Notes: generated by a model from the sequence alone, not told the origin. Counted from the first letter of the stretch, positions 3,421 through 18,027 are shown. The stretch is DNA of 46,171 bases from an uncultured Candidatus Saccharibacteria bacterium (GCA_964545345.1 CAZJFE010000002.1:1-46171), one strand, 5' to 3'. Translations and numbers: made by a program.

Positions 3421-4407
3421 ATGATCATCACTAGAACTCCTTTTCGTGTCACTTTGGGTGGTGGTGGAACTGACCTTCCTTCTTATTACGAAAAATATGG
3501 AGGGTTTATTTTTTCCGCTGGCTTGGATAAATATATGTATATTACTGTTAACCGCGCCTTGGAAGATGATCTAATACGGCTGAAATACTCCAAAACAGAA
3601 ACTGTTGAGCGAGTGGATCAACTGGAGCACGGTATTGCGCGGGAGGCTTTGCGAATGATGGGCATTGATAAGAAAATTGAGATTAGTTCGGTGGCGGATG
3701 TTTCTGCCGGCACCGGCCTCGGATCTTCCAGCTGCTATGCCGTCGGGGTCTTGAACGCTCTGCATACTTTGCGGCGTGATTACGTTTCGTTACAGCAGAT
3801 TGCCGAAGAAGATTTCAAATTGGAGAATCAAATTTTGAAGCGCCCGATCGGTAAACAAGATCCATATTTGGCGGCTTTTGGAGGGTTGACGGTTTTAGAT
3901 ATCGCTAAGGATGGGAAGGTTAAAGTCCGCAAGGCGAGTGTTTCTGAAGCTACGGCCGCTGATCTGAATCACAATCTGCTGTTGTTTTTTACCGGCGTGA
4001 CTAGAAGCGCTGATACAATCTTGAAAGAGCAATCCACATCGGTGAAAGATGACAAGAAAAGCGTAGTAGACAGTATGAACTACATTAAAGAATTGGGCTA
4101 TGAAATTTTAGAAGCGGTGGAAAGCGACAATATTTCTGAGGTGGGGCGGCTATTTGATGCCCATTGGCAACATAAGAAGAAAATTTCCAGCAAAATGTCT
4201 AATCCACAGTTTGATAAAATTTATAAGGACGCCAAAGCTAACGGCGCTTTGGGTGGAAAGATTTCCGGAGCGGGCGGCGGCGGTTTTTTCACCTTTTACG
4301 TTGAGAGCGATCACGCGAAGTTCCGGGAAGCGATGAAGAAGTGGGGACTGAAGGAGATGCGCTACAATTTTGATCATGAAGGATCAAAAGTTCTGGTTGA
4401 CTTGTAG
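3421..4407 (+). CDS. hddA: GHMP-family sugar kinase, D-glycero-alpha-D-manno-heptose-7-phosphate kinase-like
   Basis: N-terminus MIITRTPFRVTLGGGGTDLPSYY and GHMP motif GTGLGSSS. It sits among gmhA, gmhB and a nucleotidyltransferase gene. Confidence 0.75.
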   Translation: MIITRTPFRVTLGGGGTDLPSYYEKYGGFIFSAGLDKYMYITVNRALEDDLIRLKYSKTETVERVDQLEHGIAREALRMMGIDKKIEISSVADVSAGTGLGSSSCYAVGVLNALHTLRRDYVSLQQIAEEDFKLENQILKRPIGKQDPYLAAFGGLTVLDIAKDGKVKVRKASVSEATAADLNHNLLLFFTGVTRSADTILKEQSTSVKDDKKSVVDSMNYIKELGYEILEAVESDNISEVGRLFDAHWQHKKKISSKMSNPQFDKIYKDAKANGALGGKISGAGGGGFFTFYVESDHAKFREAMKKWGLKEMRYNFDHEGSKVLVDL

Positions 4408-4443
4408 GGCATTTTTGTAGCACAATCATACTTGCAATAAGTT

Positions 4444-5172
4444 ATGCCTATTAAGATCCACAATCTGAAAATAAAGATTTTCGCCGATGGGGCCGAAAAG
4501 GACGGTATGATTGAGCTCGCAAAAAAGCCATATATTCAAGGCTTTACTACTAACCCTACGTTAATGCGTAAGGCGGGTATTACCGATTATGTAAAATTTG
4601 CCAAAGAGGTTGTTGCCGCAATCCCGGATAAGCCGATTTCTTTTGAAGTTTTTTCCGATGATTTCAAAGAAATGGAGCGGCAGGCGAAAATTATTTCTTC
4701 TTGGGGTAAGAACGTTTATGTAAAAATTCCGATTACCAACACCAAGCGGGAATCGGCGGTGCCTTTAATCGCTAAATTAGTTTCCGCTGGGATCAAAGTG
4801 AATGTTACGGCCGTTTTCACTGTTAAGCAGGTGGAGGAGGTTGCAAAGGTTCTTTCTAAGAAAATTCCTTCAGTTGTTTCAGTTTTTGCAGGCAGAATTG
4901 CGGATGCGGGGTATGATCCTAAGCATTATATGAAAAAAGCGAAAGCGATTCTGGATTCTAACCCCAAAGCGGAGCTTTTGTGGGCTAGTCCTCGGGAGCT
5001 TTGGAACGTCTACCAAGCGCACAAAGTTGGATGCGATATTATTACTGTTCCGCACGACATTCTTAAGAAAATGGAGAAGTTGGGTTACGATCTGGACGAA
5101 TTTTCTCTGGACACCGTGAAAATGTTTTACGAAGATGGCCAGAAAGTCGGTTACACGTTATACGAATCCTAA
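4444..5172 (+). CDS. tal: Transaldolase / fructose-6-phosphate aldolase family protein
   Basis: FADGA...GFTTNPTL and the Schiff-base lysine context NVYVKIPITN. Length 242 aa. Confidence 0.8.
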   Translation: MPIKIHNLKIKIFADGAEKDGMIELAKKPYIQGFTTNPTLMRKAGITDYVKFAKEVVAAIPDKPISFEVFSDDFKEMERQAKIISSWGKNVYVKIPITNTKRESAVPLIAKLVSAGIKVNVTAVFTVKQVEEVAKVLSKKIPSVVSVFAGRIADAGYDPKHYMKKAKAILDSNPKAELLWASPRELWNVYQAHKVGCDIITVPHDILKKMEKLGYDLDEFSLDTVKMFYEDGQKVGYTLYES

Positions 5173-5175
5173 ATT

Positions 5176-5796
5176 ATGTATAGAGATTACATTGATTCTT
5201 ACTTAAAAGAAGTTCAGCAAATTGTTGACCAGATAGATAAAAACTCAATCCATCAGGTGATTGATATTCTTAAAGGCGTTCGTGATCAGAAGGGTCGCCT
5301 ATTTATTATCGGAGTTGGCGGTAGCGCCGGTAACGCCAGCCACGCGGTTAATGATTTTCGAAAATTAGCGGGCATTGAAAGCTATGCGCCTACCGATAAC
5401 GTCCCAGAGCTTACCGCCCGAACTAACGACGAGGGCTGGCACACTGTGTTTGCTCAATGGCTGAAGGGAAGCTCCCTTAATAGTAAAGACGCGGTGATGG
5501 TGCTTTCGGTTGGTGGTGGCAATGTGGAAAAAAATGTCAGTATGAATATCGTTGAGTCTTTGAAGTTGGCGAAATCGGTTGGGGCAAAGATAGTTGGTCT
5601 GGTTGGTCGGGATGGCGGATATACTAAGCAGGTGGCTGACGCCTGTGTCGTAGTCCCGACAGTTAATCCGGAAACCGTTACGCCACACTCTGAAGCTTTT
5701 CAGGCAGTAGTCTGGCATTTGATCGTTTCACATCCAAAGTTCCGAGTTAACGAAGGAAAATGGGAAACAGTGCAAAAACCAACCAACCTCGTCTAG
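5176..5796 (+). CDS. gmhA: SIS-domain sedoheptulose-7-phosphate isomerase
   Basis: SIS motif FIIGVGGSAGNASHAVNDF, about 200 aa, in heptose pathway context. Confidence 0.8.
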   Translation: MYRDYIDSYLKEVQQIVDQIDKNSIHQVIDILKGVRDQKGRLFIIGVGGSAGNASHAVNDFRKLAGIESYAPTDNVPELTARTNDEGWHTVFAQWLKGSSLNSKDAVMVLSVGGGNVEKNVSMNIVESLKLAKSVGAKIVGLVGRDGGYTKQVADACVVVPTVNPETVTPHSEAFQAVVWHLIVSHPKFRVNEGKWETVQKPTNLV

Positions 5797-6362
5797 AAAC
5801 GGCGAAGGCCGTTTTTTTAGATCGCGATGGCACCCTCATTAAGCAGGTGGAGTTAATGCACAAAATAGCGGACTTGGAAGTTCTGCCGGGAGTCCCAGAA
5901 GCAGTTGCCCAATTAAACCAGTTGGGTTTCTTGACGGTCATTGTTACCAACCAACCGGTAGTGGCTCGCGGCGTTGCGACGCCGGGGGATATTGAAAAAG
6001 TAAATACCGAATTACTTAAACGTCTCGCGGTTGGCGGTGGGAAAGTTGATGCGGTTTATTTTTGCCCACACCACCCCGAGGCAACCCTTGAGCAATATCG
6101 TGTTGTTTGCGATTGCCGAAAGCCGGAGCCGGGAATGATTTTGAATGGGATCAAGGAATTCAATATTGATCCAAGGCAGAGCTTTATGATTGGGGATGCG
6201 ATTATTGATATAGTGGCTGGCCAAAAAGCGGGTTTAAAAACTATTTTGGTGAAAAGCGGCCCTGGGCATTCCGGCTTGGACAAAAAATATCCCGATGTTC
6301 ATCCGGATTGGGAGGCGGCCGATCTTAGCGAAGCGGTTGAAATTATTAGTCGTCAGTCGTAA
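5760..6362 (+). CDS. gmhB: D,D-heptose 1,7-bisphosphate phosphatase (HAD-IIIA)
   Basis: VFLDRDGTLI motif I, the CPHHP...CDCRKPEPGM zinc/HAD-IIIA signature and a GDAIIDI motif. It overlaps the gmhA 3' end by 37 nt. Confidence 0.8.
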   Translation: MGNSAKTNQPRLETAKAVFLDRDGTLIKQVELMHKIADLEVLPGVPEAVAQLNQLGFLTVIVTNQPVVARGVATPGDIEKVNTELLKRLAVGGGKVDAVYFCPHHPEATLEQYRVVCDCRKPEPGMILNGIKEFNIDPRQSFMIGDAIIDIVAGQKAGLKTILVKSGPGHSGLDKKYPDVHPDWEAADLSEAVEIISRQS

Positions 6363-6382
6363 GTTGGTAGTTATAAGTTATG
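6348..6382 (+). repeat. Tandem heptanucleotide repeat, 5 units (AGTCGTC AGTCGTA AGTTGGT AGTTATA AGTTATG) spanning the gmhB stop and the next start codon
   Basis: Period-7 register read directly from the sequence. The TAA stop (6360-6362) and the ATG (6380-6382) both lie inside units. Confidence 0.8.
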
Positions 6383-7105
6383 AGTAATATAAAACAGGCG
6401 GTCATTTTATGCGCCGGTTTGGGCACGCGATTGCGGCCCATCACGGACACAATCCCAAAACCGATGCTACCGATTCTCGGCAAGCCGCTTTTAGAATGGA
6501 ATATTGAGCAGTTCAAAAAGCATGGAGTAGTGGAGTTTTTTATCAATCTGCACTATCTGCCGGAGGCAATTAAAAATTATTTTGGCGATGGTTCAAAGTT
6601 GGGGGTAAAGATAAATTATTTTTTGGAAAAAAACATTCTTGGCACTGCCGGCGGAATAAAAAGTTTTGAGAATCAGTTGGATGATGTTTTCTTCTTGATT
6701 TACGGCGACATGATCAGCTTGGTGGATTATTCCAGAATGACTAATGATTTTTTCGGAAAGTCGGATGCTATCGGAATGCAAAGAATGCAGAAGACGGATA
6801 ATTATGCCGACGCGGATGTCGCCGAGCTTGCCGACGACGGCAGTTATCTCAAAATCCATCCCAAGCCGCACACAGAGCATTATTCCAACGCCTATCGCAT
6901 GAAGGGAATCTTTATTTTGAAAAAAGATATTTTGAATCATATTCCTCCGGATACTTTCTATGAGCTGGGGAAAAATCTTCTGCCCGAGGTAGTGAGTAAG
7001 GGCAAGAAGTTTTATAGTTACGAATGCGATGATTACTCTAAAGGTATTGATACGGAGGATAAATGGCGAGAAGTTGAGGAATATCTAAAAAAGAGCTCGG
7101 CGTAG
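6380..7105 (+). CDS. hddC: Sugar-1-phosphate nucleotidyltransferase (heptose-1-phosphate guanylyltransferase-like)
   Basis: AVILCAGLGTRLRPITDTIPKPMLPI nucleotidyltransferase signature. It follows gmhB. Confidence 0.75.
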   Translation: MSNIKQAVILCAGLGTRLRPITDTIPKPMLPILGKPLLEWNIEQFKKHGVVEFFINLHYLPEAIKNYFGDGSKLGVKINYFLEKNILGTAGGIKSFENQLDDVFFLIYGDMISLVDYSRMTNDFFGKSDAIGMQRMQKTDNYADADVAELADDGSYLKIHPKPHTEHYSNAYRMKGIFILKKDILNHIPPDTFYELGKNLLPEVVSKGKKFYSYECDDYSKGIDTEDKWREVEEYLKKSSA

Positions 7106-7285: not shown

Positions 7286-8248
7286 ATGCAAGACCCTAAA
7301 TCTATTCTAGTAACGGGCGCCGCGGGTTTTATCGCGGGAAACTTTATAAGAAAATTTCAGAAAGAACATCCCAAAACCGAGATTGCGGGACTAGATAACT
7401 TCTTTAACAGCACTTCGGAGGCCGTTCCAGCCGGCATTACCTTCTACGAGGGATCAATCCGGGACGAGGCGATGCTGGAAAAGATTTTTTCCAAGCACAA
7501 ACCGGAATATGTTTTTAATTTTGCGGCGATGTCTTATGTACCATTAAGTGTTGCAAAGCCAGTAGAAACCAGTGATGTGAATATCGTTGGAACGATCCTG
7601 GTTTTTAAGAAAGCCAGTGAGCATGGAGTGAAAAGGGTGATCCATTCCTCCACCTCCGCTATTGTCGGTACGGCCAAGCACTATCCTACTAATGAAAAAG
7701 ACAATCCACCGGATCCGTTGTCTCCATACGCCGCTCAGAAGCTTGCTTGCGAACCCTTCGCGAAGATTTTTGGAAATCTTTATGGGTTAGATGTGGTTTG
7801 TCTTAGGTATTTTAACGTCTTTGGTCCGGGCCAGTACGGCGTTTCTCCGTATTCAACGGTTATCTCTGCTTGGTTAGAGGCAATATATTTCCCCAAGAAT
7901 AAAAAAGCGGTTCTTTTCGGAGATGGTGAGAATCGCCGAGATTATTGTCATGTTGATGACGTCGTTGACGCTAACATCGGCGCCATGAAGTACGACGGAA
8001 AGTTTAATGGGGAAGTTTTCCATATTGGCACCGGTACTTATTTTTCTGTAAATAAAGTTTTAGAGATGATTGAGAAGATTACCGGCAAGCCCGTAAATCC
8101 GGATCGTCAGATGTCGAGGCCAGGAGATGCAAAAGATACTCTAGCGGATTATTCCAAAGCCAAGGAGTGGTTTGGTTATGAGCCGAAAGTAAGTTTTGAA
8201 GATGGTTTGAAGCGGACGATTGCCTGGTTTGAGCAGAGAAAAAAATAA
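7286..8248 (+). CDS. NAD-dependent epimerase/dehydratase (UDP-/GDP-sugar 4-epimerase-like)
   Basis: ILVTGAAGFIAGNF Rossmann motif and SPYAAQK (YxxxK). Length 320 aa. Confidence 0.85.
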   Translation: MQDPKSILVTGAAGFIAGNFIRKFQKEHPKTEIAGLDNFFNSTSEAVPAGITFYEGSIRDEAMLEKIFSKHKPEYVFNFAAMSYVPLSVAKPVETSDVNIVGTILVFKKASEHGVKRVIHSSTSAIVGTAKHYPTNEKDNPPDPLSPYAAQKLACEPFAKIFGNLYGLDVVCLRYFNVFGPGQYGVSPYSTVISAWLEAIYFPKNKKAVLFGDGENRRDYCHVDDVVDANIGAMKYDGKFNGEVFHIGTGTYFSVNKVLEMIEKITGKPVNPDRQMSRPGDAKDTLADYSKAKEWFGYEPKVSFEDGLKRTIAWFEQRKK

Positions 8249-8251
8249 CCA

Positions 8252-9604
8252 GTGCGAACAATTTTTGTCACAATTTTTCAGGGCGCGGAAGCCAAAAATA
8301 TTCTGCGTACTGATGTATATAAGCATCTGATCGTCAATCCGGAGCTAAGGTTGGTTTTTTTGGCGGGCAATCAGGATCGGATTGATTATTACCGGAAAGA
8401 GTTCAACGCTCCGAATGTAGTTTATGAAGTAGCCGAGATGGGGAAAATGGGTTTTTGGAATCGATTTTTTTCCAATCTGAAATTCCACCTTTTAAATACG
8501 GAAACGGCGGATTTGCGGAGAGAAATGATTTTTGAGGAGACTCATAATCGCCGCCGTTATCGCATCAGCCGACTAGTTAACCGTGTTTTTGCCAGACCGA
8601 TAGTTCGGAAATTAGTTAGGTTATTAGATTACTTTTTAGTTCGCGATCAGTTTTTCGCCGCTCTATTTGATAAGTACGAACCCTCTTTAGTTTTTTGCGC
8701 GCATTTATTTGACGATCAGGAGACCCAGCTTTTGCGCGAGGCGAAGCGCCGAGGAGTTAAAACAATCGGTTTTGTGAACTCCTGGGATAAGATGACTGCT
8801 CGCGGTATCGTGCGTCTTTTACCGGACCGATTGGTTGTGTTTAATGAACTAGTGAAAGCGGAGGCAATTCGTTATGCCGATATGCCTGCCGGCAAAATAG
8901 TGATCGCCGGGATCCCACAATATGATTGGCATGTTAACTATCAACCTCTAAGCAAAGGAGAGTTTTTCCGTAAGAAGAATTTGGATGTCTCCAAAAAATT
9001 AGTGGTATACGCCCCGATGGGAAAAACTTTCAGCAATTCTGACTGGGACATAATTGATCTTTTGCATAATTGGATGGCGGATGGCCAAATCCGGAGCGCC
9101 CAGTTGATGGTGCGATTCCAACCCAATGATTTTTTTGATGAAGCAGAGATGCAGAAGCGTCCGTGGCTGATTTATGATCGTCCCGGTATCCGATTCTCCA
9201 AGGAACGCGGCGTTGATTGGGATATGAGCTTTGATGATATTCGCGGGCTGACTGACACCTTGGCCAACGCCGACTTATTTATTTGCTATGCCTCCAGCAT
9301 GAGTGTGGACGCGGCGGTTTTTGATAAACCGGTGATTAATATTGATTTTGAAGTCCGTCCGAAAGAATTGATGTCTAAATCGCCGACTTATTTTTATAAG
9401 ATGACGCATTATGCCAAAGCCGCGCGGACTGGAGGCATTCGCTATCCGGAGAGCAAGGAGGAATTTTTGAAGGATATTAATGATTATCTGGATAATCCGA
9501 AGCTGGATGATTTGGGCCGGCATAGATTGGTCGGGGAGCAATGCTGGAAATTGGATGGCCATTCCAGCGAACGGGTCGCCAAGATAATTTTAGAAAACGC
9601 TTAA
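8252..9604 (+). CDS. Putative GT-B-fold transferase (TagF/CDP-glycerol glycerophosphotransferase- or capsule-biosynthesis-like)
   Basis: 450-aa soluble ORF with a GTG start. The C-terminal half (VVYAPMGKTF...CYASSMSVDAAVFDKPVINIDF) resembles TagB/TagF-type transferases. The function call is weak. Confidence 0.4.
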   Translation: MRTIFVTIFQGAEAKNILRTDVYKHLIVNPELRLVFLAGNQDRIDYYRKEFNAPNVVYEVAEMGKMGFWNRFFSNLKFHLLNTETADLRREMIFEETHNRRRYRISRLVNRVFARPIVRKLVRLLDYFLVRDQFFAALFDKYEPSLVFCAHLFDDQETQLLREAKRRGVKTIGFVNSWDKMTARGIVRLLPDRLVVFNELVKAEAIRYADMPAGKIVIAGIPQYDWHVNYQPLSKGEFFRKKNLDVSKKLVVYAPMGKTFSNSDWDIIDLLHNWMADGQIRSAQLMVRFQPNDFFDEAEMQKRPWLIYDRPGIRFSKERGVDWDMSFDDIRGLTDTLANADLFICYASSMSVDAAVFDKPVINIDFEVRPKELMSKSPTYFYKMTHYAKAARTGGIRYPESKEEFLKDINDYLDNPKLDDLGRHRLVGEQCWKLDGHSSERVAKIILENA

Positions 9605-9605
9605 A

Positions 9606-9953
9606 ATGAAAAGCATCGGAATAGACATTGTTGAAGTAAAAAGATTTCGAAATGTCCCATACAAAAAGGGCAGCGTTTTTTATTCCAAAATCTTCAGCGA
9701 TGCCGAAATCAAATATTGTTTATCTAAAGATGACCCCTACCCGCACTTCGCCGCGCGCTTCGCCGCGAAAGAAGCGGTTTTGAAGTGTTTGAAGAGCACA
9801 ATCTATAAAATAAAGGAGGTGGAGATTCTTAACGATAAGAAGGGCGTTCCGTTTGTCCGACTTCACGGTCGTAAGTCGTTAGTCGTTAGTCGTTTCTTGA
9901 TTTCGCTATCGCACACTAAAGATCAGGCCGCCGCCATCGCATTCTTACAATGA
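9606..9953 (+). CDS. acpS: Holo-[acyl-carrier-protein] synthase (4'-phosphopantetheinyl transferase)
   Basis: IGIDIVEVKRF, FAARFAAKEAVLKC and ISLSHT motifs. Length 115 aa. Confidence 0.85.
   Translation: MKSIGIDIVEVKRFRNVPYKKGSVFYSKIFSDAEIKYCLSKDDPYPHFAARFAAKEAVLKCLKSTIYKIKEVEILNDKKGVPFVRLHGRKSLVVSRFLISLSHTKDQAAAIAFLQ
9867..9894 (+). repeat. Tandem heptanucleotide repeat inside acpS (GGTCGTA AGTCGTT AGTCGTT AGTCGTT)
   Basis: Read directly from the sequence. It encodes RKSLVVSRF. The stop triplets created by the repeat (9872, 9880, 9887) all fall in the two non-coding frames. Confidence 0.8.
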
Positions 9954-11431
9954 TTAAATTAGTTCAAGAATATTTTTCGGAATCGGCTAGAAAATATCCT
10001 GACCATCCGGCGGTAGTTTTTGGCGAACGGCGCCCAACCTTCAGCGAGTTAGAGAAATCTTCTAATCAGTTCGCGAGGTTTTTGCGAGATAAGGGAGTTA
10101 GAAAGGGAGATCGGGTGGCTTTTTGTCTGTCGAAATCAGTTGAGGCCATTGAATCGATTTTGGGAATCTTGAAGGCTGATGCGGTTTATGTGCCACTCAA
10201 TGCAAAAGCTCCTAAGGCTCGGATGTCGCAGATCATTGAAGATGCCAGGCCCGCTTTAGTTATTTGCGATATGGATACTTCAAAGTTAGTCGGGGAGGTA
10301 AAGATTTTTAATATCCAGACCGACCGTTCTTCTATTTTGGGATTTGAAGATCGCGCCGTTGATTATCAAAATGCTGGTTCGGATCCGGCTTATATTCTAT
10401 ATACCTCCGGATCTACTGGCGTCCCGAAAGGCGTGATGATTACTCACGACAATATTATCAATGCTACCGATTGGGCGGTGGATGAATTCGGAATTTCTCA
10501 TGGTGACCGACTCTCTCAGCACCCACCCTTGTATTTTGATCTCTCCACCTTTGATTTGTATTGCGCTTTTAGCGCCGGAGCTACCTTGTTTCTAGTGCCG
10601 GAGTCGCTTTCAATCTTCCCCGGTCAGCTGATGAGATTCATTGAGGAGAACGAACTGACGATTTGGGACTCCGTGCCATCGGTGATGGTTTATTTGTCCA
10701 ATGCTGATGTTGTGAAGGCGGGAAGAATGCCGAGTGTTCGAAAGATATTTTTCAATGGAGAGGGTTTCCCGGCCCGGTTTCTAGCGGAGTGGATGAAAAC
10801 TTTTCCAGAAAAAGAATTTATTAATATGTATGGTCCAACCGAGACCACCGTGCAGTGTACTTTTTATCGCATTCCTGAACCGCCGCAAGATTTAACGAAG
10901 TTGGTTCCGATTGGGAAAGCTTGTCGCGGAGTGGAAGTTTTTGATGTTGAGGGAGAGTTGTACGTGGCTGGAAAGGGTGTCGGTAAGGGTTATTGGAATA
11001 ATTCCGAAAAGACCAAAGCGTCTTTTGTGCCTGACGCGCGTCCGGGGAAGTCGGGGTTGGTTTATAAAACCGGAGATTTAGTTAGTTTGCGCGAGGACGG
11101 CAATTACGAATTCATTGGCCGGAAAGATTTCCAGGTAAAGATTATGGGAAATCGGATAGAGTTGGGCGATGTTGAGGCAGCCCTACTGGCCCTGCCTTGC
11201 GTTGCTGAGGCGGCAGTAATTGCAGTGGCGGTGAATGAAACTGACGGAAGCGAAATGGTCGGCTTTGTTAAGCTCAAGGAGGCGCGAGAAGAATCATTGA
11301 TCAAAGCCGATTTAGCTAATTTGATCCCTAGTTATATGATCCCGGCAAAGATTGTAGTTCAAGATTTTTTGCCCAGAACTAGCACCGGCAAGGTGGATAG
11401 GAATAAATTAAAAGATGGATATAAAGTCTAA
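9950..11431 (+). CDS. Adenylate-forming enzyme, amino acid/aryl acid--carrier protein ligase (DltA-like, stand-alone A domain)
   Basis: AMP-binding core motifs LYTSGSTGVPKGV, YGPTE, YKTGDL and GRKDFQVKIMGNRIELGDVE, plus a terminal GKVDR motif. The ATGA overlap with the acpS stop indicates coupling. Confidence 0.85.
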   Translation: MIKLVQEYFSESARKYPDHPAVVFGERRPTFSELEKSSNQFARFLRDKGVRKGDRVAFCLSKSVEAIESILGILKADAVYVPLNAKAPKARMSQIIEDARPALVICDMDTSKLVGEVKIFNIQTDRSSILGFEDRAVDYQNAGSDPAYILYTSGSTGVPKGVMITHDNIINATDWAVDEFGISHGDRLSQHPPLYFDLSTFDLYCAFSAGATLFLVPESLSIFPGQLMRFIEENELTIWDSVPSVMVYLSNADVVKAGRMPSVRKIFFNGEGFPARFLAEWMKTFPEKEFINMYGPTETTVQCTFYRIPEPPQDLTKLVPIGKACRGVEVFDVEGELYVAGKGVGKGYWNNSEKTKASFVPDARPGKSGLVYKTGDLVSLREDGNYEFIGRKDFQVKIMGNRIELGDVEAALLALPCVAEAAVIAVAVNETDGSEMVGFVKLKEAREESLIKADLANLIPSYMIPAKIVVQDFLPRTSTGKVDRNKLKDGYKV

Positions 11432-11654
11432 ACTCAAGGCATTTTTGGAAAAAGAAACCCAAAAGGAAATTTCCGATGATTCGGAGAATTTACTTGCATC
11501 TAACATTTTAGATTCTTTTTCTATGATTAAGATTATCGGCTTTGTGGAATCGGAATTAGGAATTAAGCCGAATATGGAGGAGCTAACACCGGATAATTTT
11601 AATTCCGTGGCAACCATCAGTCAGATGATTGAAAAATGGAAATCAGGAAAATAA
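11415..11654 (+). CDS. Acyl/peptidyl (D-alanyl-type) carrier protein
   Basis: 79 aa with the phosphopantetheine attachment context ILDSFSMIKIIGFVE. It overlaps the ends of both neighbours. Confidence 0.75.
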   Translation: MDIKSKLKAFLEKETQKEISDDSENLLASNILDSFSMIKIIGFVESELGIKPNMEELTPDNFNSVATISQMIEKWKSGK

Positions 11655-12676
11655 AAAAATCAGAGTGGGAGAAACTGCAGGCCTTCAACGCGGCGGAATA
11701 TAAGGCCGACCATATTTTAACCAACAAAGTTTATTACGATTGGCAGTTTGACGCGCCTTGGAATTCGGATAAAGAAACTTATGAAACGCTGGGAATGTTT
11801 GACAGCAAGGGAAACTTAATCGGAACCTTCGGGCTTTTTTCCACGCCGCACAATCATCGCGGGACTATGATACTTGGGACTCAGCTTTGCAATTTGATTG
11901 TCAAAAAAGAGCTGCGCGCTTTGGGCTATGGATATCTTTTATTGGATAAAGCATCAACGGTCAACAAAATTACTATTGATCACACGATCAACGATTCGGC
12001 CTGGCCGATGTTTGAAAAGTCGGGTTGGCAGAAAGAAAATTTGAAGCGTTGGATTCACATTATCAAACCCGACAACGATCTTTACTCTCTCTCGGCTTCG
12101 GCGATCAAGCCGATTATGAAAAATGGCTGGCACTTTGATCAAGTTTCGCAATTTGGCGAAGAGATGGATGAATTTTGGAATCGCGCGAAGAAGCGCTACC
12201 CGATAACCCTTGAACGCACAGCGGAATATTTAAATTGGCGGTTCGCGAAGAACCCACTGGTGAAATATCTTATGTTTGTAGTTAAAGGCGAAGAGAAAAT
12301 TAGGGGATTGGTGGTTGCTCGGTCCGAGAGCGTCAAAAACGAGAAGGGGCCGCTGGGTGTGAAGGTATTGAGGATCATTGATCTCATAGTTGATGAAGAT
12401 GCCGAGGGATTTGCCTGCTCACGAATTGCCGAGTGCGCGCGCGAAAACAATTTTGATTTCGTGGAATATTTCTCTAGCGGCGCTTTTCACGATCAAGGAC
12501 TGGAGGCGGCCGGATTTGAGAATGGCAACAAGGGAATTTTCGCCCGTTTACCAATTTTGTTTAACCCGGTCAGCTTCAAGCGTACTCATTTGAATTTTGC
12601 CGTTAAAACTAAAGACAAAAAGGATCTTTCTGATTGGTACACAACCAAAGGTGGGGGTGATCAGGATCGGGCTTAA
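11636..12676 (+). CDS. GNAT-fold acyl/aminoacyl transferase, two-domain
   Basis: GNAT motif A-like LRALGYGYLLLDKA in the N-terminal half. The 346-aa ORF is translationally coupled to the carrier protein gene. Confidence 0.55.
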   Translation: MEIRKIKKSEWEKLQAFNAAEYKADHILTNKVYYDWQFDAPWNSDKETYETLGMFDSKGNLIGTFGLFSTPHNHRGTMILGTQLCNLIVKKELRALGYGYLLLDKASTVNKITIDHTINDSAWPMFEKSGWQKENLKRWIHIIKPDNDLYSLSASAIKPIMKNGWHFDQVSQFGEEMDEFWNRAKKRYPITLERTAEYLNWRFAKNPLVKYLMFVVKGEEKIRGLVVARSESVKNEKGPLGVKVLRIIDLIVDEDAEGFACSRIAECARENNFDFVEYFSSGAFHDQGLEAAGFENGNKGIFARLPILFNPVSFKRTHLNFAVKTKDKKDLSDWYTTKGGGDQDRA

Positions 12677-12711: not shown

Positions 12712-12723
12712 TAGGTACTTTTG

Positions 12724-13896
12724 ATGAGTAAACTATCTAAGCCTAAACGGAAAATTTGCTTCCCAATTATGAGCCGTATCCACTACGCGCGGCAGAAGCA
12801 TTTAATGGGCTTGATCCAAAAAAGTTCCAAGTTGGATCTTCAGCTGGTGGTAGGCGGATCGGTTTTGCTGGATAAGCACGGTGAGCGGTTTTTGCCGGCA
12901 ATGGCGGAAGCCGGTTTTAACGTTAACGAAACTTTATTCAACGTGATTGACGGCGGCAATCATATCGCCATGGCGAAGACCTCCGGCCTCGCCGCCCTGG
13001 AATTTTCCAACTCACTTTATAAATTAAATCCCGATATTGTTTTGATTCGCGGCGACCGCTTTGAACAATTAGCGTTGGCGATGGTAGCGGCCTATTTAAA
13101 TAAAACCATTGCCCACATTGAAGGCGGTGATCTGACCGGTACGATTGATGAAAGTGTTCGGCACGCTATTACAAAACTCGCGCATGTTCATTTTGTGACC
13201 AACGAAGACGCCCGCAAGAGGGTAATTCAAATGGGTGAGAATCCCCGCATGGTTTTCAATGTCGGATCGCCCGATGTGGAGTTCGCGGCTCTAGTAGATA
13301 AGAAAAACGATGGCCGAGCCGTTAATAAAAGTGGTATGGGTTATGAAATTGATGTGAATAAGCAATTTCTGATGGTGATGCAGCACCCGGTGACGACCGA
13401 AAAAAATAACCGGAAGAATTTTGAAGAAACTTTGAAGGCGGTGGACGCGTTGAATCTGCCGACTGTTTGGTTTTGGCCGAACAGCGATGCCGGTACTAAC
13501 GAAATTTCTAAAGCGATCCGTGTTTATCGCGAGCATGGGAAGTTGAAGAATAAAAAAATTCGTTTTGTTACTGATCTTTTGCCGGATGATTTTATCGCGT
13601 TGTTACGCAGAGCGAGCGTGATGATCGGCAATTCCTCCGCGGGGATCAAAGAGTCTTCTTATTTAGGAGTACCGGTAGTGAATGTCGGCACACGTCAGGC
13701 CAACCGTTTGCGATCGGAGAACGTTGCTGATGCAGGGTACAAAGCTGATGTGATCAAGAAAGCCATTCAGAAGCAGTTAACTCATGGAGCGTATAAAAAA
13801 TCCGATCTTTACTACAAGGCCGGCTCCAGCCGGAAAATTGTTGAGGTTCTATCAAAGATAAAACTTAATCCGCAGAAAAAGTTTTACACCATTTAA
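12724..13896 (+). CDS. neuC: UDP-N-acetylglucosamine 2-epimerase (hydrolysing), NeuC/LegG-type
   Basis: RGDRFEQLALAMVAAYLNKTIAHIEGGDLTGTIDESVRHAITKLAHVHF is the NeuC signature region. ATG 12724 is preferred over the adjacent TTG at 12721. Confidence 0.85.
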   Translation: MSKLSKPKRKICFPIMSRIHYARQKHLMGLIQKSSKLDLQLVVGGSVLLDKHGERFLPAMAEAGFNVNETLFNVIDGGNHIAMAKTSGLAALEFSNSLYKLNPDIVLIRGDRFEQLALAMVAAYLNKTIAHIEGGDLTGTIDESVRHAITKLAHVHFVTNEDARKRVIQMGENPRMVFNVGSPDVEFAALVDKKNDGRAVNKSGMGYEIDVNKQFLMVMQHPVTTEKNNRKNFEETLKAVDALNLPTVWFWPNSDAGTNEISKAIRVYREHGKLKNKKIRFVTDLLPDDFIALLRRASVMIGNSSAGIKESSYLGVPVVNVGTRQANRLRSENVADAGYKADVIKKAIQKQLTHGAYKKSDLYYKAGSSRKIVEVLSKIKLNPQKKFYTI

Positions 13897-14621
13897 TGGC
13901 AAAAATTTTGGGAGTTATCACCGCGCGGGGTGGCTCTAAGGGAATCCCGGGTAAAAACATTAAGCCGCTGTTAGGTAAGCCGTTAATCGCTTACACGATT
14001 GAAGCCGCCAAAGCATCAAGCGTGGTTGATCGTTTGATTCTTTCTACCGACGATCTGGAAATTGCTGAAGTGGCGAAGCAATACGGTTGTGAGGTCCCAT
14101 TTATTCGTCCAGCTGACATCGCCGACGATAAAGCCGCGCATTTACCGGTATTGCAACACGCGATTAAAGCTTTGAAAGAAAAGGACGGTTATGAGCCGGA
14201 CTATGTTTTGTTGCTCCAACCGACCTCTCCGGCCCGGCAATCCTTTCATATCAAGGAAGCCGTGGAGTTGATAGAGAAAAGCGGCGCGGATTCCGTTTTG
14301 AGCGTGGCGGAAATCCCGGAGAATTTTCATTACAAGAAAGCGATGGCCGTTAATGAAGATGGAGTTTTGCGGTTAGTTAAGGATTCCGGGCCAATTTATA
14401 ACCGAGTGGCCCGTCGCCAAGATTTGGAAAAAAACTACTGGAGCGTTGGTTCTATTTATCTTTTCAAAACTAGTTTGTTGTTTGATCAGGTAAAGCCGAA
14501 TTTTTATGGCGAAAAAACTATGCCCTACGTGATAGACGCGAAGTATGTCGTGGATATTAATGTTCCCGCGGATTGGGAAGTGGCCGAAAAAGTGATCAAA
14601 CGACTAACGACTAACGACTAA
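13896..14621 (+). CDS. neuA: Acylneuraminate (nonulosonate) cytidylyltransferase
   Basis: ITARGGSKGIPGKNIKPLLGKPLIAYTIEAA is the CMP-NulO synthetase N-terminal signature. The start overlaps the neuC stop. Confidence 0.85.
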   Translation: MAKILGVITARGGSKGIPGKNIKPLLGKPLIAYTIEAAKASSVVDRLILSTDDLEIAEVAKQYGCEVPFIRPADIADDKAAHLPVLQHAIKALKEKDGYEPDYVLLLQPTSPARQSFHIKEAVELIEKSGADSVLSVAEIPENFHYKKAMAVNEDGVLRLVKDSGPIYNRVARRQDLEKNYWSVGSIYLFKTSLLFDQVKPNFYGEKTMPYVIDAKYVVDINVPADWEVAEKVIKRLTTND

Positions 14622-14626
14622 CGACT
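14599..14626 (+). repeat. Perfect tandem heptanucleotide repeat (AACGACT)x4, containing the neuA stop and abutting the next ATG
   Basis: Four exact units. It is the reverse complement of the AGTCGTT repeat found at the other loci. TAA recurs every 7 nt, so stops occur in all three frames. The ATG at 14627 follows immediately. Confidence 0.9.
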
Positions 14627-15562
14627 ATGAAAATTTTAATTACCGAGCCGCAGGATTATTCCAAGAAAGCTGTTGAGATGTATAAATCTCACGGCGATGT
14701 GGTTTTAGGTGGTGAGCCGGACGCGGAGACGGGGGTGATAGCGATTCGGTTAAAACACAAGATTGATAAGAGCTGGATGGATAAAATGCCGAATTTAAAA
14801 ATTATTGCTTCACCAACTACCGGATTGAATCACATAGATATCGCCGAGGCGGAGAAGCGGGGCATTAAATTGATCACTTTACGTGGACATACCGACTTTT
14901 TGGATAAGATCACTTCTACCGCCGAAGAAACTTTGGGATTGATACTGGCTCTAGTTCGCAAGATTCCGCAAGCGCACGAGCATGTTAAGGGCGGAGGATG
15001 GAATCGCGACGCTTTCCGAGGTTATCAGTTGGCCGGTCAAACACTCGGCATATTAGGATTGGGTCGGCTTGGTCGGATGGTGGCGCGTTATGCAAAATCA
15101 ATGGACATGAAAGTAGTCGCCGCTGATCCCGGTATTACCGGAGAGGAAATGAGCAAGCAAGGAGTAACAAAAGTTAGCCACGAAGAATTATTCAAAAATT
15201 CCGACATTCTTTCTTTGCACGTGATGTTGACCGATAATACTAAGAATTTAGTGAAAGAGGGAGATTTGAAGTTAATGAAGCCGTCGGCTTTGTTAGTGAA
15301 TACGGCTCGGGCGGAAATTATGGAAAAGGGAGCTTTAGAAAAAGCATTGAGAGAAAAATGGATCGCCGGGGCGGCGGTAGATGTGATGTGGGACGAAGAG
15401 GGTAGTGGCGCGCATTTGGCCAAGAGTGAACTCTGGGATATGGCAAAAAGCGGTCAGCATAATTTGATTATCGTTCCGCATATCGGGGGCGCCACTTATG
15501 ACGCCATGCAAATCACCGAAGAATTTATCGCCGATTTAGTGAAAAAAGAATTAACAAAGTAA
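14627..15562 (+). CDS. D-isomer-specific 2-hydroxyacid dehydrogenase, NAD-binding
   Basis: GILGLGRLGRMVARY dinucleotide motif and the catalytic-His context VPHIGGAT. Length 311 aa. Confidence 0.8.
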   Translation: MKILITEPQDYSKKAVEMYKSHGDVVLGGEPDAETGVIAIRLKHKIDKSWMDKMPNLKIIASPTTGLNHIDIAEAEKRGIKLITLRGHTDFLDKITSTAEETLGLILALVRKIPQAHEHVKGGGWNRDAFRGYQLAGQTLGILGLGRLGRMVARYAKSMDMKVVAADPGITGEEMSKQGVTKVSHEELFKNSDILSLHVMLTDNTKNLVKEGDLKLMKPSALLVNTARAEIMEKGALEKALREKWIAGAAVDVMWDEEGSGAHLAKSELWDMAKSGQHNLIIVPHIGGATYDAMQITEEFIADLVKKELTK

Positions 15563-15990
15563 TGAATAATTGCGTTTTAGTTCGCAAGGAAGATATTGAT
15601 AAAACTTTAGCGACGGCGCCGGTTCAGGGGAAAAAATTACTGGAGCCATTGAAATCTTTGGCGGCGGCCAACAAAATGCCGCTGAATATTTTGGAAGATA
15701 AAGAAGTTTTGAGTAACGACGCGGAAGTCCATATGCATGAGGCGGATTTGTGGCTTTGCTTGGAAGGGGAGGTGAAATTTATTTATGGCGGCGAGATGGC
15801 GGACCCCTGGTTTAAGAAGAATGCCGACGGCAGCGAAGATCAGCGCGAGATTAAAGCAAAATCAATTCGCGGCGGTACTGAATCGGTATTAAAACCGGGC
15901 GACTGGCTCTGGGTTCCCGCCGGACAGCCACACCAGCATTTGTGCGAAGGCACTGCTAGGTTAGCGATCATTAAAGTCCCGAAGGTGTAG
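15562..15990 (+). CDS. Cupin-domain protein
   Basis: 142 aa. HMHE...PGDWLWVPAGQPHQH fits the cupin metal motifs. The start overlaps the upstream stop. Confidence 0.6.
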   Translation: MNNCVLVRKEDIDKTLATAPVQGKKLLEPLKSLAAANKMPLNILEDKEVLSNDAEVHMHEADLWLCLEGEVKFIYGGEMADPWFKKNADGSEDQREIKAKSIRGGTESVLKPGDWLWVPAGQPHQHLCEGTARLAIIKVPKV

Positions 15991-16056: not shown

Positions 16057-17049
16057 GTGGGAAAGGTTGTGATCGGTGAGAAGTGGATGAAGTGGACGTT
16101 GTTGGAGGCCGGAACAAGAACCGGATCTAAGCTGTTGCAGAAAGTGATCGGACTCGCCGCGCCTACTTTTGCCTTTAACGTTGTTGCTTCGTTTGTCGTT
16201 GGTTTGATGCAAACATTAGCCGGTTTCCTGGCAGTGAAGAAGCAGGGTAAGTCGTTTTTCCCGAACCGTCAGCAGGTCTGGGGATCGATCGCCTTTGGAA
16301 CACTGGCGACTTTTTCAACGATTGTGCCTTTCACGATTTTTTATCTTGGCGGCGATATTGGCGTAAACACCTTTATCATCACTCTTTCTATTGTTCCCGG
16401 AGCGTTCATTGACCGAATCTTTTTCGGTCACAAGCTAACCGGTCGTCAGTGGGCGGGAGTGGGAATGGCGGTAATAGCTGGCTACTCTGTTCTCGGGTGG
16501 CCGACTGCTCAGGGATTTTTTTCCCTGCCGTTGTGGGTCTGGCTGTCGTTCGCGGTTATGATGGCAAATGCGGTTAATCAAGGAATCACTCAGAAAGTTA
16601 AAGATGTTGATCCGATGGTGAAGAACTTCTGGGGCGGGTTTACCAATGTGGCGCTTTCGCTGGGAGTGCTCGCGTTTATTGGCTCACTTGGCGCCCTGTT
16701 TGATTTTTCGCCCCAGCTCCGCAAGCTCTGGCTAGCGGCCCCGTTGGTTGGTGGAATCGTGATCGCCATGTGGAGTTTTAACCTCCTGAGTTACAAGGGC
16801 GGCGCCAGTATCGCGCTTAAGAAACTAGTGATGAACGGCACTTATCTTACCGCGGTGATGGTGCTTAGCGTCCTGATCCCTTATTTCAAAGAATCAATGA
16901 CTTGGGGTAAGGCGATTGGTATTCCGCTCTACTTTGTCGCCTTTGCTTTGATGGATAACGGCACCTGGAATTATGTTTCCAGCTGGTTTTGTAAGGAAAC
17001 GGTCAAGTCCGGATCCGACGCCCCCGTGAAGGTCCCGACAAAAGTTTAA
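16057..17049 (+). CDS. Polytopic inner-membrane protein (DMT/transporter-like)
   Basis: 330 aa with about 9-10 hydrophobic segments. The GTG start lies 7 nt after GGAGG. Confidence 0.6.
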   Translation: MGKVVIGEKWMKWTLLEAGTRTGSKLLQKVIGLAAPTFAFNVVASFVVGLMQTLAGFLAVKKQGKSFFPNRQQVWGSIAFGTLATFSTIVPFTIFYLGGDIGVNTFIITLSIVPGAFIDRIFFGHKLTGRQWAGVGMAVIAGYSVLGWPTAQGFFSLPLWVWLSFAVMMANAVNQGITQKVKDVDPMVKNFWGGFTNVALSLGVLAFIGSLGALFDFSPQLRKLWLAAPLVGGIVIAMWSFNLLSYKGGASIALKKLVMNGTYLTAVMVLSVLIPYFKESMTWGKAIGIPLYFVAFALMDNGTWNYVSSWFCKETVKSGSDAPVKVPTKV

Positions 17050-17054
17050 TCTTC

Positions 17055-17085
17055 GGCCCCCGCGTAAAACGCGGGGGCCTTTTTG
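17055..17085 (+). terminator. Rho-independent terminator
   Basis: GGCCCCCGCG TAAAA CGCGGGGGCC hairpin followed by TTTTT. Confidence 0.9.
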
Positions 17086-17086
17086 T

Positions 17087-17092
17087 TAAACT
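17087..17092 (+). promoter_or_regulatory. -10-like box TAAACT placed 6 nt before ATG 17099 (leaderless layout)
   Basis: No Shine-Dalgarno sequence. The block TTTGTTAAACTTTAwTTATGTTC is duplicated at 18011-18033. Confidence 0.45.
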
Positions 17093-17098
17093 TTATTT

Positions 17099-18007
17099 AT
17101 GTTCATCTGGTTTGTTTTGGCTTTGGGTTCGGCGATTTCTAATTCCGCTACTCAAGTTATTCAAAAGTGGGCAATCAGCGCCGGGCGTCTTTCCAAAATC
17201 TCTATAACGTTTTTGTCTTCGCTGACCGCTTCTTTAATATTGTTTGCGCTTTCCGGACTTGTAATTGGCGTTCCGGTGATCCAGCCGGGATTTTGGCTGG
17301 CCATCTTCATTACCAGCATATTAAACGCGATTGCTTTCCCGATAATGTTGAAGGCGTATTCGCTGGGAGAATTTTCCACGGTTTATTCAATGATTCTGCT
17401 GACGCCGGTATTTCTGGTCTTTACTTCGTTCTTTTTCCTGGGAGAAGTTCCGACTTTACCGGGACTGGTTGGCGTAGTCCTGACGGTGGTCGGTTTATCG
17501 GTAGTGACTTTGAGCGGCCACAGGCATACGCAGGTACCGAATTTCAAAAAAGGGAATTGGTTGGGAATATTAGTGGCTTTGATTTGGTCGGTGACGGTTA
17601 ATTTTGATAAATTGTCCGCCCGGTATACCGATGCTTTCTTTGCTCCCGCTGTGAGTTTCGGTATTCTGGCGTTTTGCTTCGCATCTTATTTACTCATTCG
17701 GCATCGGAGTTTATTGGTGCGCGCGCCGAGACTCCCGGATATAGAAGAGCCGATGCCGCCAGCCGGTTCTATTAAGGCGGGGTTGTTAATCGTGTTACTA
17801 CTCGGTTTGTCGCTGGCGTTGGGGAACATTTTGCATAATTCCGCGTTATTGCACGGCCCGGCTTCTTACACGATCGCCATCAAGCGTACCGGAGTCTTGT
17901 TCGGCGTGATTTGGGGCTGGCTGTTCTTCAAAGAAAAAAATATTGCCGGGAAAGCTTTGGGCGCCGCGATTGCTATCGGTGGAGTAGTTTTGATCCTGTG
18001 GTCTTAG
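17099..18007 (+). CDS. EamA/DMT-family transporter
   Basis: 302 aa with 10 predicted TM segments. The C-terminal motif GVIWGWLFFKEK...GAAIAIGGVVLILWS is shared with the next gene. Confidence 0.75.
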   Translation: MFIWFVLALGSAISNSATQVIQKWAISAGRLSKISITFLSSLTASLILFALSGLVIGVPVIQPGFWLAIFITSILNAIAFPIMLKAYSLGEFSTVYSMILLTPVFLVFTSFFFLGEVPTLPGLVGVVLTVVGLSVVTLSGHRHTQVPNFKKGNWLGILVALIWSVTVNFDKLSARYTDAFFAPAVSFGILAFCFASYLLIRHRSLLVRAPRLPDIEEPMPPAGSIKAGLLIVLLLGLSLALGNILHNSALLHGPASYTIAIKRTGVLFGVIWGWLFFKEKNIAGKALGAAIAIGGVVLILWS

Positions 18008-18015
18008 GTTTTTGT

Positions 18016-18021: not shown

Positions 18022-18027
18022 TTAATT

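Follow-up and report, generated by a model that had tools for sequence, protein, structure and literature searches.

We analysed a 46,171-nucleotide stretch of DNA from an uncultured Candidatus Saccharibacteria bacterium (GCA_964545345.1, CAZJFE010000002.1:1-46171), referred to below as the window. Positions 8252-12676 of the window hold five co-directional, tightly packed genes, which probably form a module that puts an amino acid on a nonulosonic (sialic-acid-like) sugar. Four of them make up a cassette encoding an AcpS-type phosphopantetheinyl transferase, a stand-alone amino-acid adenylation (A) enzyme, a 79-aa carrier protein and a tandem-GNAT protein, which we call GNATl. The fifth encodes a TagB/TagF-like glycosyltransferase. 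The initial annotation, made from the sequence of the window, had proposed that an amino or hydroxy acid is loaded onto the carrier and transferred by the GNAT protein to an amino group of a nucleotide-activated nonulosonate or heptose. We compared the window with related loci, cited here by number (L001 and so on).

Proteins of the cassette

The four overlapping open reading frames (ORFs) of the cassette were all recovered on the plus strand, where the initial annotation had placed them (Table 1). The AcpS and A-enzyme genes meet in an ATGA overlap at 9950-9953, the A-enzyme and carrier genes overlap by 17 nt and the carrier and GNATl genes by 19 nt. The TagB-like gene terminates 1 nt ahead of the AcpS start; given this spacing, and its being kept with the cassette in other genomes, it should be counted with the same unit. 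The predicted identities and folds of the four cassette proteins were established by sequence comparison and structure prediction.

The phosphopantetheinyl transferase was confirmed by matches above the cut-offs of all three models concerned, PF01648 (1.8e-17, 63.8 bits, cut-off 25), TIGR00556 (78.8 bits, cut-off 45.35) and TIGR00516 (62.1 bits, cut-off 59.8). It is probably dedicated to the carrier protein of the cassette. AcpS was found in the cassette of all Patescibacteria loci, of both DPANN (Nanoarchaeota) loci and of the Pseudomonadales metagenome-assembled genome (MAG) contigs L024 and L025; in the other large-genome bacterial loci it was not detected, save for a weaker minus-strand match in L036. 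This distribution would partly fit organisms with otherwise little use for phosphopantetheine. In the ultra-small Patescibacteria and DPANN archaea, which carry their own AcpS here, the locus may possibly be among the few uses of phosphopantetheine in the cell.

The A enzyme matched the Pfam families AMP-binding (3.3e-81) and AMP-binding_C, and scored 376 bits with TIGR01733, 'amino acid adenylation domain' (cut-off 317.4). All the AMP-binding core motifs claimed for it were read in its sequence (YTSGSTGVPKG, NMYGPTE, YKTGD, GRKDFQVKIMGNRIELGDVE and TGKVDR), and its best solved matches were LgrA A domains, PltF and DltA. The earlier description of the enzyme as DltA-like holds for its architecture. 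It does not hold for the DltA equivalog models, whose cut-offs are far above the scores obtained (TIGR01734, 310 bits, cut-off 559.85; NF003417, 314 bits, cut-off 476), nor for the substrate pocket, in which Asn269 stands at the position of the D-Ala-selecting Cys of DltA (B. subtilis Cys268). The DltA reference has the code DLMTMCTVAK, and its numbering (D196, C268 and K491) agrees with that of B. subtilis DltA.

The specificity code of the A enzyme, whose prediction the initial annotation had proposed as a check, was read from an alignment of the enzyme to a PheA fragment, which as a control returned the PheA code DAWTIAAICK. The code in the window is DLFDFNMVQK (D197, L198, F201, D240, F267, N269, M293, V301, Q302 and K481). 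D197 and K481 align with Asp235 and Lys517 of PheA, and because both are retained an alpha-amino acid would be favoured as substrate over a hydroxy or fatty acid. Of the amino or hydroxy acid proposed earlier, the former is therefore favoured and the latter less likely. The code joins bulky residues (Phe, Phe and Met) to polar ones (Asn/Asp, Asn and Gln), a combination suggestive of a small, polar substrate. The code DLF(D/N)FNMVQK was found in seven of nine Patescibacteria orthologues, including those of loci merely 46-50% identical overall, and the other two deviate at one or two positions (L008, DLFNLNLVQK; L013, DLFNCNMVQK). Given this constancy, one identical substrate would be conserved among the Patescibacteria A enzymes.

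The carrier matched solved type II peptidyl carrier proteins (PltL and PigG), CcbZ and DltC at E values from 8.8e-7 to 5e-3. Its Ser34, in LDS34FS, is invariant in an alignment of 10 A-type and four FkbH-type carriers (the loader types are described below). On this combined evidence we accept the 79-aa protein as a putative carrier with the DSFS attachment site first noticed in it, though its match to the Pfam PP-binding family is below threshold.

No Pfam or NCBIfam model describes the GNATl family, weak GNAT matches aside; for the window protein the match was a borderline one to Acetyltransf_1 (21.5 bits, cut-off 20.7). A sequence search of solved structures gave no match either, and fold comparison alone was informative. 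An AlphaFold (AF2) model built from a 46-homologue alignment (pLDDT 94.3, pTM 0.91) has a tandem GNAT fold, consistent with the two-domain GNAT protein of the initial annotation, which had also called for modelling. Its best Foldseek matches were N-myristoyltransferases (NMT) and Eis-like acetyltransferases (E ~1e-12, TM 0.5-0.58, 10-16% identity). GNAT motif A reads R94-x-x-G97-x-G99 in GNATl; all three residues are invariant in the Patescibacteria set, G99 also across phyla. All family members from a pattern scan carry a C-terminal K-(G/S)-(D/G)-G-D-Q-D-R-(P/A)-x tail; of 22 distant members checked, 18 have the stop codon directly behind it. The positions conserved in the family lie mostly in the C-terminal half (R229, R246, Y211, the D277 equivalent, P306, P311 and the GDQDR tail). 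This conservation, despite differing donors, would fit a common class of acceptor. The window GNATl retains all strictly invariant residues of the family, and its substitutions at three nearly invariant positions are conservative (Tyr203 to Phe, Asp277 to Glu, and Pro to Ala at the terminal residue 346).

The GNATl family and its gene neighbourhoods

A homology search with GNATl gave ~67 clusters, and the minority with a source name came from Patescibacteria/Parcubacteria-type MAGs or bore the bare label 'bacterium'. When a single genome of each species was scanned for the pattern, relatives came to light in Nanoarchaeota, Verrucomicrobiota, Planctomycetota, Acidobacteriota, Rhodothermales, Chloroflexia, Gemmatimonadales, Alpha- and Gammaproteobacteria and Desulfovibrio. 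Among 1.84 billion representative proteins, a profile search recovered 1,638 clusters with E<=1e-30, and relaxing the threshold to E<=1e-10 raised their number to 4,168; the best 150 matches listed were all full-length (~320-390 aa). Cultured organisms with a GNATl gene include Fusobacterium nucleatum (WP_338941471.1), Aliivibrio sp. S2TY2 (WP_274440254.1), Magnetococcus marinus (Mmc1_0151), Paenibacillus durus (WP_042208826.1) and Psychrobacter (WP_201560440.1).

As gene neighbourhoods and tblastn showed, the order AcpS, A enzyme, carrier, GNATl is conserved in at least nine further distinct Patescibacteria loci (among L005-L013 and L041-L043), at 37-77% GNATl identity. Because the synteny is conserved in independent genomes, the arrangement in the window is not due to chance. 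The TagB-like gene lies directly 5' of AcpS in L005, L006, L008, L009 and L011 (43-67% identity). NeuC, NeuA or NeuB was found within 10 kb of the Patescibacteria cassettes wherever the flank was long enough. Homologous cassettes are thus linked to sugar genes, a point on which the initial annotation had staked its reading, and the wider family also adjoins NeuC/NeuA/NeuB genes. Of the two associations proposed, nonulosonate or heptose, the former stood; the latter did not, as many relatives lack heptose genes.

Outside the A-type loci the carrier is served by a different loader. In 16 distinct loci a ~600-aa FkbH-like loader and a 76-88-aa carrier precede GNATl, often with a MaoC-type dehydratase. 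GNATl adjoins a carrier and a loader in Neu/Leg-type loci of Nanoarchaeota, Verrucomicrobiota, Planctomycetota, Acidobacteriota, F. nucleatum and Aliivibrio. Two Planctomycetota MAGs have FkbH, carrier and GNATl fused in a single ORF (L019, 1903-5157, 1,084 aa; L039, 7823-11053, 1,076 aa). The case that GNATl would draw its acyl group from a carrier rests most firmly on this fusion, together with the exchange of two unrelated loader types ahead of the carrier-GNATl pair. Recurrent synteny and the two fusions also bear out the view that A enzyme, carrier and GNATl act as one functional unit. From comparative genomics we infer both the coupling of loader, carrier and GNATl and its tie to nonulosonate genes.

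A NodB-type deacetylase (Polysacc_deac_1) is present in all 16 FkbH-type loci and in the A-type loci L012, L013, L028, L036 and L038. In F. nucleatum the order is FkbH, PP-binding, MaoC, SDR, Hexapep, GNATl and deacetylase, followed by DegT, a PglD-like gene, NeuB, a NeuC-like gene and a CMP-synthetase. Aliivibrio has a legionaminic-type set and then FkbH, PP-binding, GNATl and deacetylase, while the order in a Desulfovibrio MAG is CBS-NTP-transferase, A enzyme, B12-radical-SAM, PP-binding, GNATl and deacetylase. Because the deacetylase accompanies GNATl, the logic of the family would seem to be that an N-acetyl group is taken off and a different N-acyl group installed from a carrier protein. 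In L028, L036 and L038 (an alphaproteobacterium, a 'Bacillati' MAG and the Desulfovibrio MAG) the codes of the A enzymes adjoining GNATl resemble that of DltA and include the D-Ala Cys (DLHFLCLIAK, DLFFLCLIAK and DLIVFCSVSK), which fits D-alanyl nonulosonates in those lineages.

It is quite possible, and we put it forward as a tentative proposal, that the GDQDR tandem-GNAT family works with the NodB-type deacetylase as a general, unrecognised exchanger of the N-acyl groups of nonulosonic acids. If so, an FkbH loader would lead to glyceroyl groups and an A domain to aminoacyl groups on nonulosonates, and the family would supply the missing genetic basis for sugars like Pse5Am7Gra, Pse7Gra and Leg5Ac7(Ac)Ala.

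The Patescibacteria loci are otherwise variable. They hold second pairs of A enzyme and carrier, FkbH/carrier pairs, small GNATs, methyltransferases, FolD with a formyltransferase, PEP mutase and DegT aminotransferases. This variability resembles that of the flagellin glycosylation islands of Campylobacter and Aeromonas, for which ACP, AMP-dependent synthetase, deacetylase, GNAT and acyl-dehydratase genes are listed with the mechanism unstated (PMC7874193, PMC7099621). L041 has, within 13240-15190, a second AMP-binding enzyme (code TGYYVASHQK, without Asp235) with its own 74-aa carrier, and also a PEP mutase (phosphonate). In L042 (11109-12931) an FkbH/carrier pair is followed by a small GNAT, and in L001 (9194-11946) FolD and the formyltransferase flank the GNATl gene. 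Stacked donor modules of this kind suggest combinatorial decoration of the same sugar.

In the Nanoarchaeota locus L014 the FkbH-like gene (7572-9355) is divided between two reading frames, 7572-8825 and 8759-9355, owing either to a frameshift or to an error of sequencing. Apart from this split, the locus comprises deacetylase, AcpS, FkbH, ACP, MaoC, GNATl and Neu genes. A prophage of E. coli FDAARGOS_1277 (L046, NZ_CP070103.1, 11962-14765) carries a GNATl-family gene and a polysaccharide deacetylase gene. Its GNATl aligned to the family profile at 99.5% in hhalign, and its C-terminus is cut by IS1. The pair lies just downstream of the tail genes, with a 2-kb hypothetical ORF between TipJ and GNATl, and the prophage region shown has no annotated carrier or loader gene. 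The pair occurs in two of 5,426 complete E. coli genomes, at a position typical of seroconversion genes. A phage search gave matches to IS1 only, and a plasmid search gave one weak match, which covered 95% at 22% identity (E=1e-13) and lay on a Subdoligranulum variabile replicon of 267 kb.

Proposed mechanism and alternative explanations

In the mechanism that we propose, AcpS would modify Ser34 of the 79-aa carrier to give the holo form, and the A enzyme would adenylate a small, probably polar alpha-amino acid and thioesterify the carrier with it. The N-terminal domain of GNATl (R94xxG97xG99) would then hold the phosphopantetheine arm, and GNATl would move the aminoacyl group to the nonulosonate made by NeuC, NeuB and NeuA. 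The likeliest target would be a free amine, giving an N-aminoacyl nonulosonate. Like the C-terminus of N-myristoyltransferase and that of Eis, the GDQDR tail may join in catalysis. Finally, the TagB-like enzyme would put the CMP-activated sugar on a surface glycan. We think it probable that a nonulosonate is aminoacylated by the cassette, with the carrier as donor. For an amide link our estimate is more cautious, somewhat short of an even chance. Which amino acid is used, which atom accepts it and at which stage it is transferred (free sugar, CMP-sugar or glycan) we can only infer; the amino group and the nucleotide-activated sugar named in the initial annotation stand as candidates.

Several observations weigh against this mechanism. 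No deacetylase was detected by tblastn with three such proteins, whether in the window or in L001, L005, L006, L008, L009 and L011. Pfam scans of the window ORFs of at least 110 aa gave neither a deacetylase nor an aminotransferase, and those closest relatives have no aminotransferase in reach either. The encoded NeuC/NeuB/NeuA pathway would give an N-acetylated, Neu5Ac-like sugar without a free amine. NeuB, PseI and PseF equivalog scores are below their cut-offs and so do not single out one sugar type (Neu, Leg or Pse), and the heptose genes are equally close to the cassette in the window. The neighbourhood of genes cannot tell modification of the sugar from modification of another product of the locus. 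At the level of the single proteins, the carrier scores 18.8 bits with Pfam PP-binding (gathering score 20.8), all named GNATl members are annotated 'hypothetical' or 'GNAT family', and DLFDFNMVQK matches no specificity code known to us. The closest code is presumably that of Thr, at ~5 of 10 positions, and the amino acid is therefore left unnamed.

For the missing amine there is an open way out: the enzyme that generates it may be encoded elsewhere, the island being cut at its left edge. L001 has a sugar-type formyltransferase, which needs a free amine, and no amine source is visible nearby. Because this formyltransferase occurs with no deacetylase in its vicinity, amines can arise from genes outside the locus. 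The absence of a deacetylase and of an aminotransferase in the window and its closest relatives also speaks for a hydroxyl acceptor reached by the same donor chemistry. Either the nonulosonate or the glycan assembled by the TagB-like enzyme would then carry an aminoacyl ester, which would add positive charge, and the system would be a cytoplasmic counterpart of teichoic acid D-alanylation. The TagB/TagF-like gene, an invariant upstream neighbour, favours this reading, and the synthase domain of MprF, a tandem GNAT, moves aminoacyl groups from aminoacyl-tRNA to hydroxyls. Still, we regard a hydroxyl acceptor as unlikely. A NodB-type deacetylase accompanies the family in most other lineages and speaks for an amine; the window GNATl retains all family-invariant residues, so that a different chemistry in its subgroup is not indicated; and the amine demanded in L001 counts here as well. 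The family-wide context thus argues for a nonulosonate amine as the putative acceptor.

We attach clearly less weight to an acceptor other than a nonulosonate, such as a GDP-heptose-derived sugar, another lipid-linked glycan intermediate or a protein amine. The heptose genes are conserved upstream in L001, L005, L006 and L008, and the closest folds of GNATl are protein or aminoglycoside N-acyltransferases; these fold matches are distant, as the TM values above indicate, the heptose pathway comes here without an aminotransferase, and the family is found with NeuB/NeuC/NeuA-type genes often in the absence of heptose genes (F. nucleatum, Aliivibrio, Verrucomicrobiota). It is very improbable that GNATl is a plain acyl-CoA N-acetyltransferase, an analogue of PseH or LegH, with AcpS, A enzyme and carrier serving another enzyme or a small product of the nonribosomal peptide synthetase (NRPS) type. 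Weak GNAT similarity is indeed the sole sequence-level annotation of the protein, and the E. coli prophage member stands beside a deacetylase gene with no carrier or loader annotated. Against this reading, loader, carrier and GNATl share one ORF in two genomes and are adjacent in ~30 loci with two unrelated loader types, and the window offers a loaded carrier no other acyltransferase, condensation or thioesterase domain.

The Dlt, AlmEFG and modular NRPS readings were discarded on gene content. In Pfam scans, no window ORF of at least 110 aa matched MBOAT/DltB, DltD, Condensation or Thioesterase, in agreement with the initial annotation, which had seen neither a dlt operon nor a condensation domain here; an AlmG is likewise missing. 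From the stand-alone A enzyme and small carrier, from DltA and DltC among the weaker matches and from the TagF-like gene upstream, one could suspect a divergent system of the dlt or AlmEFG type, acting outside the cytoplasm to aminoacylate a lipid or a teichoic-acid-like polymer. We give this reading hardly any credence, since the window has no MBOAT/DltB, DltD or LpxL-type AlmG, the DltA and DltC equivalog scores are far under their cut-offs and Asn replaces the D-Ala-selecting Cys. By eye, no signal peptide or membrane segment was noticed in GNATl; no predictor was run.

The sugar island and comparison with known systems

From position 3 to ~27600 nearly all genes of the window are on the plus strand and sugar-related (Table 1). 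The initial annotation had placed the cassette between a GDP-heptose pathway and a NeuC/NeuA/NeuB module. It does lie between the GDP-heptose genes and NeuC/NeuA. NeuB is not adjacent; it follows 6 kb downstream of the cassette, past the dehydrogenase, the cupin and three EamA transporters, and an SDR epimerase gene and the TagB-like gene also separate the heptose genes from the cassette.

Table 1. Genes of the cassette and of the surrounding sugar island in the window
Feature	Position	Strand	Length	Basis or remark
Truncated GFO/IDH/MocA gene	left edge			island cut there
Two SDRs	left part of island, before heptose genes			
Heptose pathway (GHMP kinase, transaldolase, SIS isomerase, HAD phosphatase, NTP transferase)	3421-7105			GDP-heptose reading
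TagB/TagF-like GT-B glycosyltransferase, putative CMP-nonulosonate transferase	8252-9604	+	450 aa	Glyphos_transf
AcpS-type phosphopantetheinyl transferase	9606-9953	+	115 aa	PF01648, TIGR00556, TIGR00516
Stand-alone amino-acid adenylation (A) enzyme	9950-11431	+	493 aa	AMP-binding and AMP-binding_C, TIGR01733
Carrier protein, Ser34 attachment site	11415-11654	+	79 aa	solved peptidyl carrier protein matches, invariant Ser
Tandem-GNAT protein (GNATl)	11636-12676	+	346 aa	fold model, borderline Acetyltransf_1
NeuC-type hydrolysing UDP-N-acetylglucosamine 2-epimerase	12721-13896	+		TIGR03568, 353.7 bits (cut-off 235.9)
CMP-nonulosonate synthetase (NeuA/PseF-like)	13896-14621	+		CTP_transf_3 (PF02348), 1.2e-24, 87.8 bits
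D-2-hydroxyacid dehydrogenase	14627-15562	+		2-Hacid_dh_C, 1.4e-51
Cupin	15562-15990	+	142 aa	Cupin_2, 2.8e-8
Three EamA-family transporter genes	16057-18945			between cupin and NeuB
NeuB-family nonulosonate synthase	18936-20078	+		PF03102, 3.8e-73, 246 bits
ORF without Pfam or PDB match	20165-21217			by eye not suggestive of a deacetylase
UDP-glucose/GDP-mannose dehydrogenase-like ORF	21322-22239		305 aa	
Wzy_C protein with C-terminal TPR repeats	22240-24438		732 aa	O-antigen ligase / O-oligosaccharyltransferase-like
Ser/Thr/Gly/Ala-rich protein	24735-25505		256 aa	N-terminal hydrophobic segment
Flippase and initiating phosphoglycosyltransferase		-		

The window encodes a NeuC-type epimerase, a NeuB-type synthase and a CMP-synthetase, the gene set by which a putative locus of nonulosonic-acid biosynthesis is recognised. 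NeuC is 75-82% identical in related loci. The CMP-synthetase scored 185 bits with the PseF model (cut-off 205.7), and NeuB scored 269 bits with NeuB_NnaB and 207 bits with PseI, both under the cut-offs. The TagB-like protein matched Glyphos_transf weakly (6.4e-5, 22.5 bits) and the NCBIfam 'BFO_1060 family glycosyltransferase' at 4.5e-11 and 42.5 bits, far under the cut-off of 200; a sequence search found no solved homologue. In Tannerella, genetic work has proved TagB-like proteins to be Pse/Leg transferases (PMC5420450), and the window protein, which weakly resembles those enzymes, is a candidate CMP-nonulosonate transferase. The 256-aa Ser/Thr/Gly/Ala-rich protein may serve the locus as a glycoprotein substrate. 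In the dehydrogenase-like ORF at 21322 the N-domain match starts from profile position 73 and no C-terminal domain was matched, so that the gene may be truncated or degenerate. Two EamA genes stand at the same place in L001; such genes, whose products resemble drug/metabolite or nucleotide-sugar transporters, are unusual within a nonulosonate operon.

The pair of D-2-hydroxyacid dehydrogenase and cupin is conserved in L001, L008 and L009. The order NeuB, NeuC, NeuA, 2-hydroxyacid dehydrogenase was observed in Patescibacteria, Verrucomicrobiota and Planctomycetota (L016, L018, L021 and L022, ~5900-6900; L039, 3020-3931). The dehydrogenase is PGDH/glyoxylate-reductase-like, and in Patescibacteria the 142-aa cupin comes next. 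By analogy with ElaA/ElaC (PMC13656337), the dehydrogenase looks like an undescribed core step of the nonulosonate pathway, possibly an oxidation or epimerisation of the CMP-sugar. As a supplier of hydroxy acid for the A enzyme it was discarded, because the alpha-amino-binding Asp is kept in that enzyme and because the dehydrogenase also trails NeuA in FkbH-type loci. No informative structural relatives were found for the cupin or the dehydrogenase.

In many microbes the flagella, S-layers, capsules and lipopolysaccharides are capped by nonulosonic acids (sialic, legionaminic and pseudaminic acids), whose N-acyl groups determine antigenicity and recognition by phages and lectins. Alanyl, glyceroyl, hydroxybutyryl and other N-acyl variants have been catalogued chemically. 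The N-alanyl form, for example, is known as Leg5Ac7AcAla in Vibrio vulnificus (PMC7371886), and for the N-glyceroyl substituent Friedrich et al. (2017) noted that the genes responsible were not known (PMC5378307). In the open-access literature we found no description linking FkbH, an acyl or aminoacyl carrier or a tandem GNAT to nonulosonate acylation; for FkbH/ACP with nonulosonates there were annotation mentions only, without a mechanism (Campylobacter cj1302, Aeromonas glycosylation islands). The GNATl family may explain how many microbes make unusual N-acyl nonulosonates. It offers a testable set of enzymes (loader, carrier and tandem GNAT, with or without deacetylase) in cultivable hosts, namely Fusobacterium, Aliivibrio, Psychrobacter, Paenibacillus and Magnetococcus. 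The cassette also indicates that bacteria of candidate phyla invest in elaborate modular decoration of sugars with a dedicated phosphopantetheinyl transferase. The chemistry of adenylation, carrier loading and acyl transfer is already known, and it is the transferase family and the target that would be new.

Like the Dlt system (DltA, DltC, DltB and DltD), the cassette has small, translationally coupled genes and a stand-alone A enzyme that would load a carrier of ~80 aa with an amino acid for the decoration of a surface polymer. In contrast to Dlt, its transferase is a soluble tandem GNAT without DltB or DltD, and its genomic partner is a nonulosonate pathway. The V. cholerae AlmEFG system, which puts glycine on lipid A, likewise combines a DltA-like ligase with a small carrier in the cytoplasm and aminoacylates a glycolipid. 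AlmG, however, is an LpxL-family acyltransferase acting on lipid A, and the window has no such gene.

For the wider GNATl family the NodB/NodA/NodF and LpxC/LpxD systems are closer, both of which carry out de-N-acetylation followed by N-acylation from an acyl carrier protein. As in these systems, a deacetylase would free the sugar amine and an acyl-S-carrier would donate the N-acyl group. NodA and LpxD (a left-handed beta-helix) have unrelated acyltransferase folds and use fatty acyl donors, and the window lacks the deacetylase. In fold, GNATl is comparable with NMT, Eis and FemX/MprF, in which two GNAT domains are fused and the donor is bound by the N-terminal one. NMT and Eis use the C-terminal carboxylate in catalysis; in comparison, the tail of GNATl is invariant and ends 1-2 residues past GDQDR in most members. 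The donors of these enzymes are acyl-CoA or aminoacyl-tRNA rather than a carrier protein, and their acceptors are proteins, aminoglycosides, peptidoglycan precursors and lipids.

FkbH-type glyceryl-ACP loading, as in methoxymalonyl-ACP and tetronate formation, is relevant to the sister loci, in which FkbH replaces the A enzyme beside carrier and GNATl, whereas the window has an amino-acid A domain. We know of no function shown for FkbH modules in glycan loci. An FkbH-domain gene, cj1302, has been noted in the flagellar glycosylation locus of C. jejuni (PMC7099621). The closest precedents for transfer from a carrier to an amino sugar are the lincosamide (LmbC/CcbC, LmbN/CcbZ and LmbD/CcbD) and butirosin (BtrI/BtrH) pathways, in which a carrier-bound amino acid is passed to an amino-sugar amine without a condensation domain; CcbZ is among the solved matches of the cassette carrier. 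Those pathways belong to secondary metabolism and their transferases are of unrelated fold, whereas the target of the cassette would be the sugar of a surface glycan.

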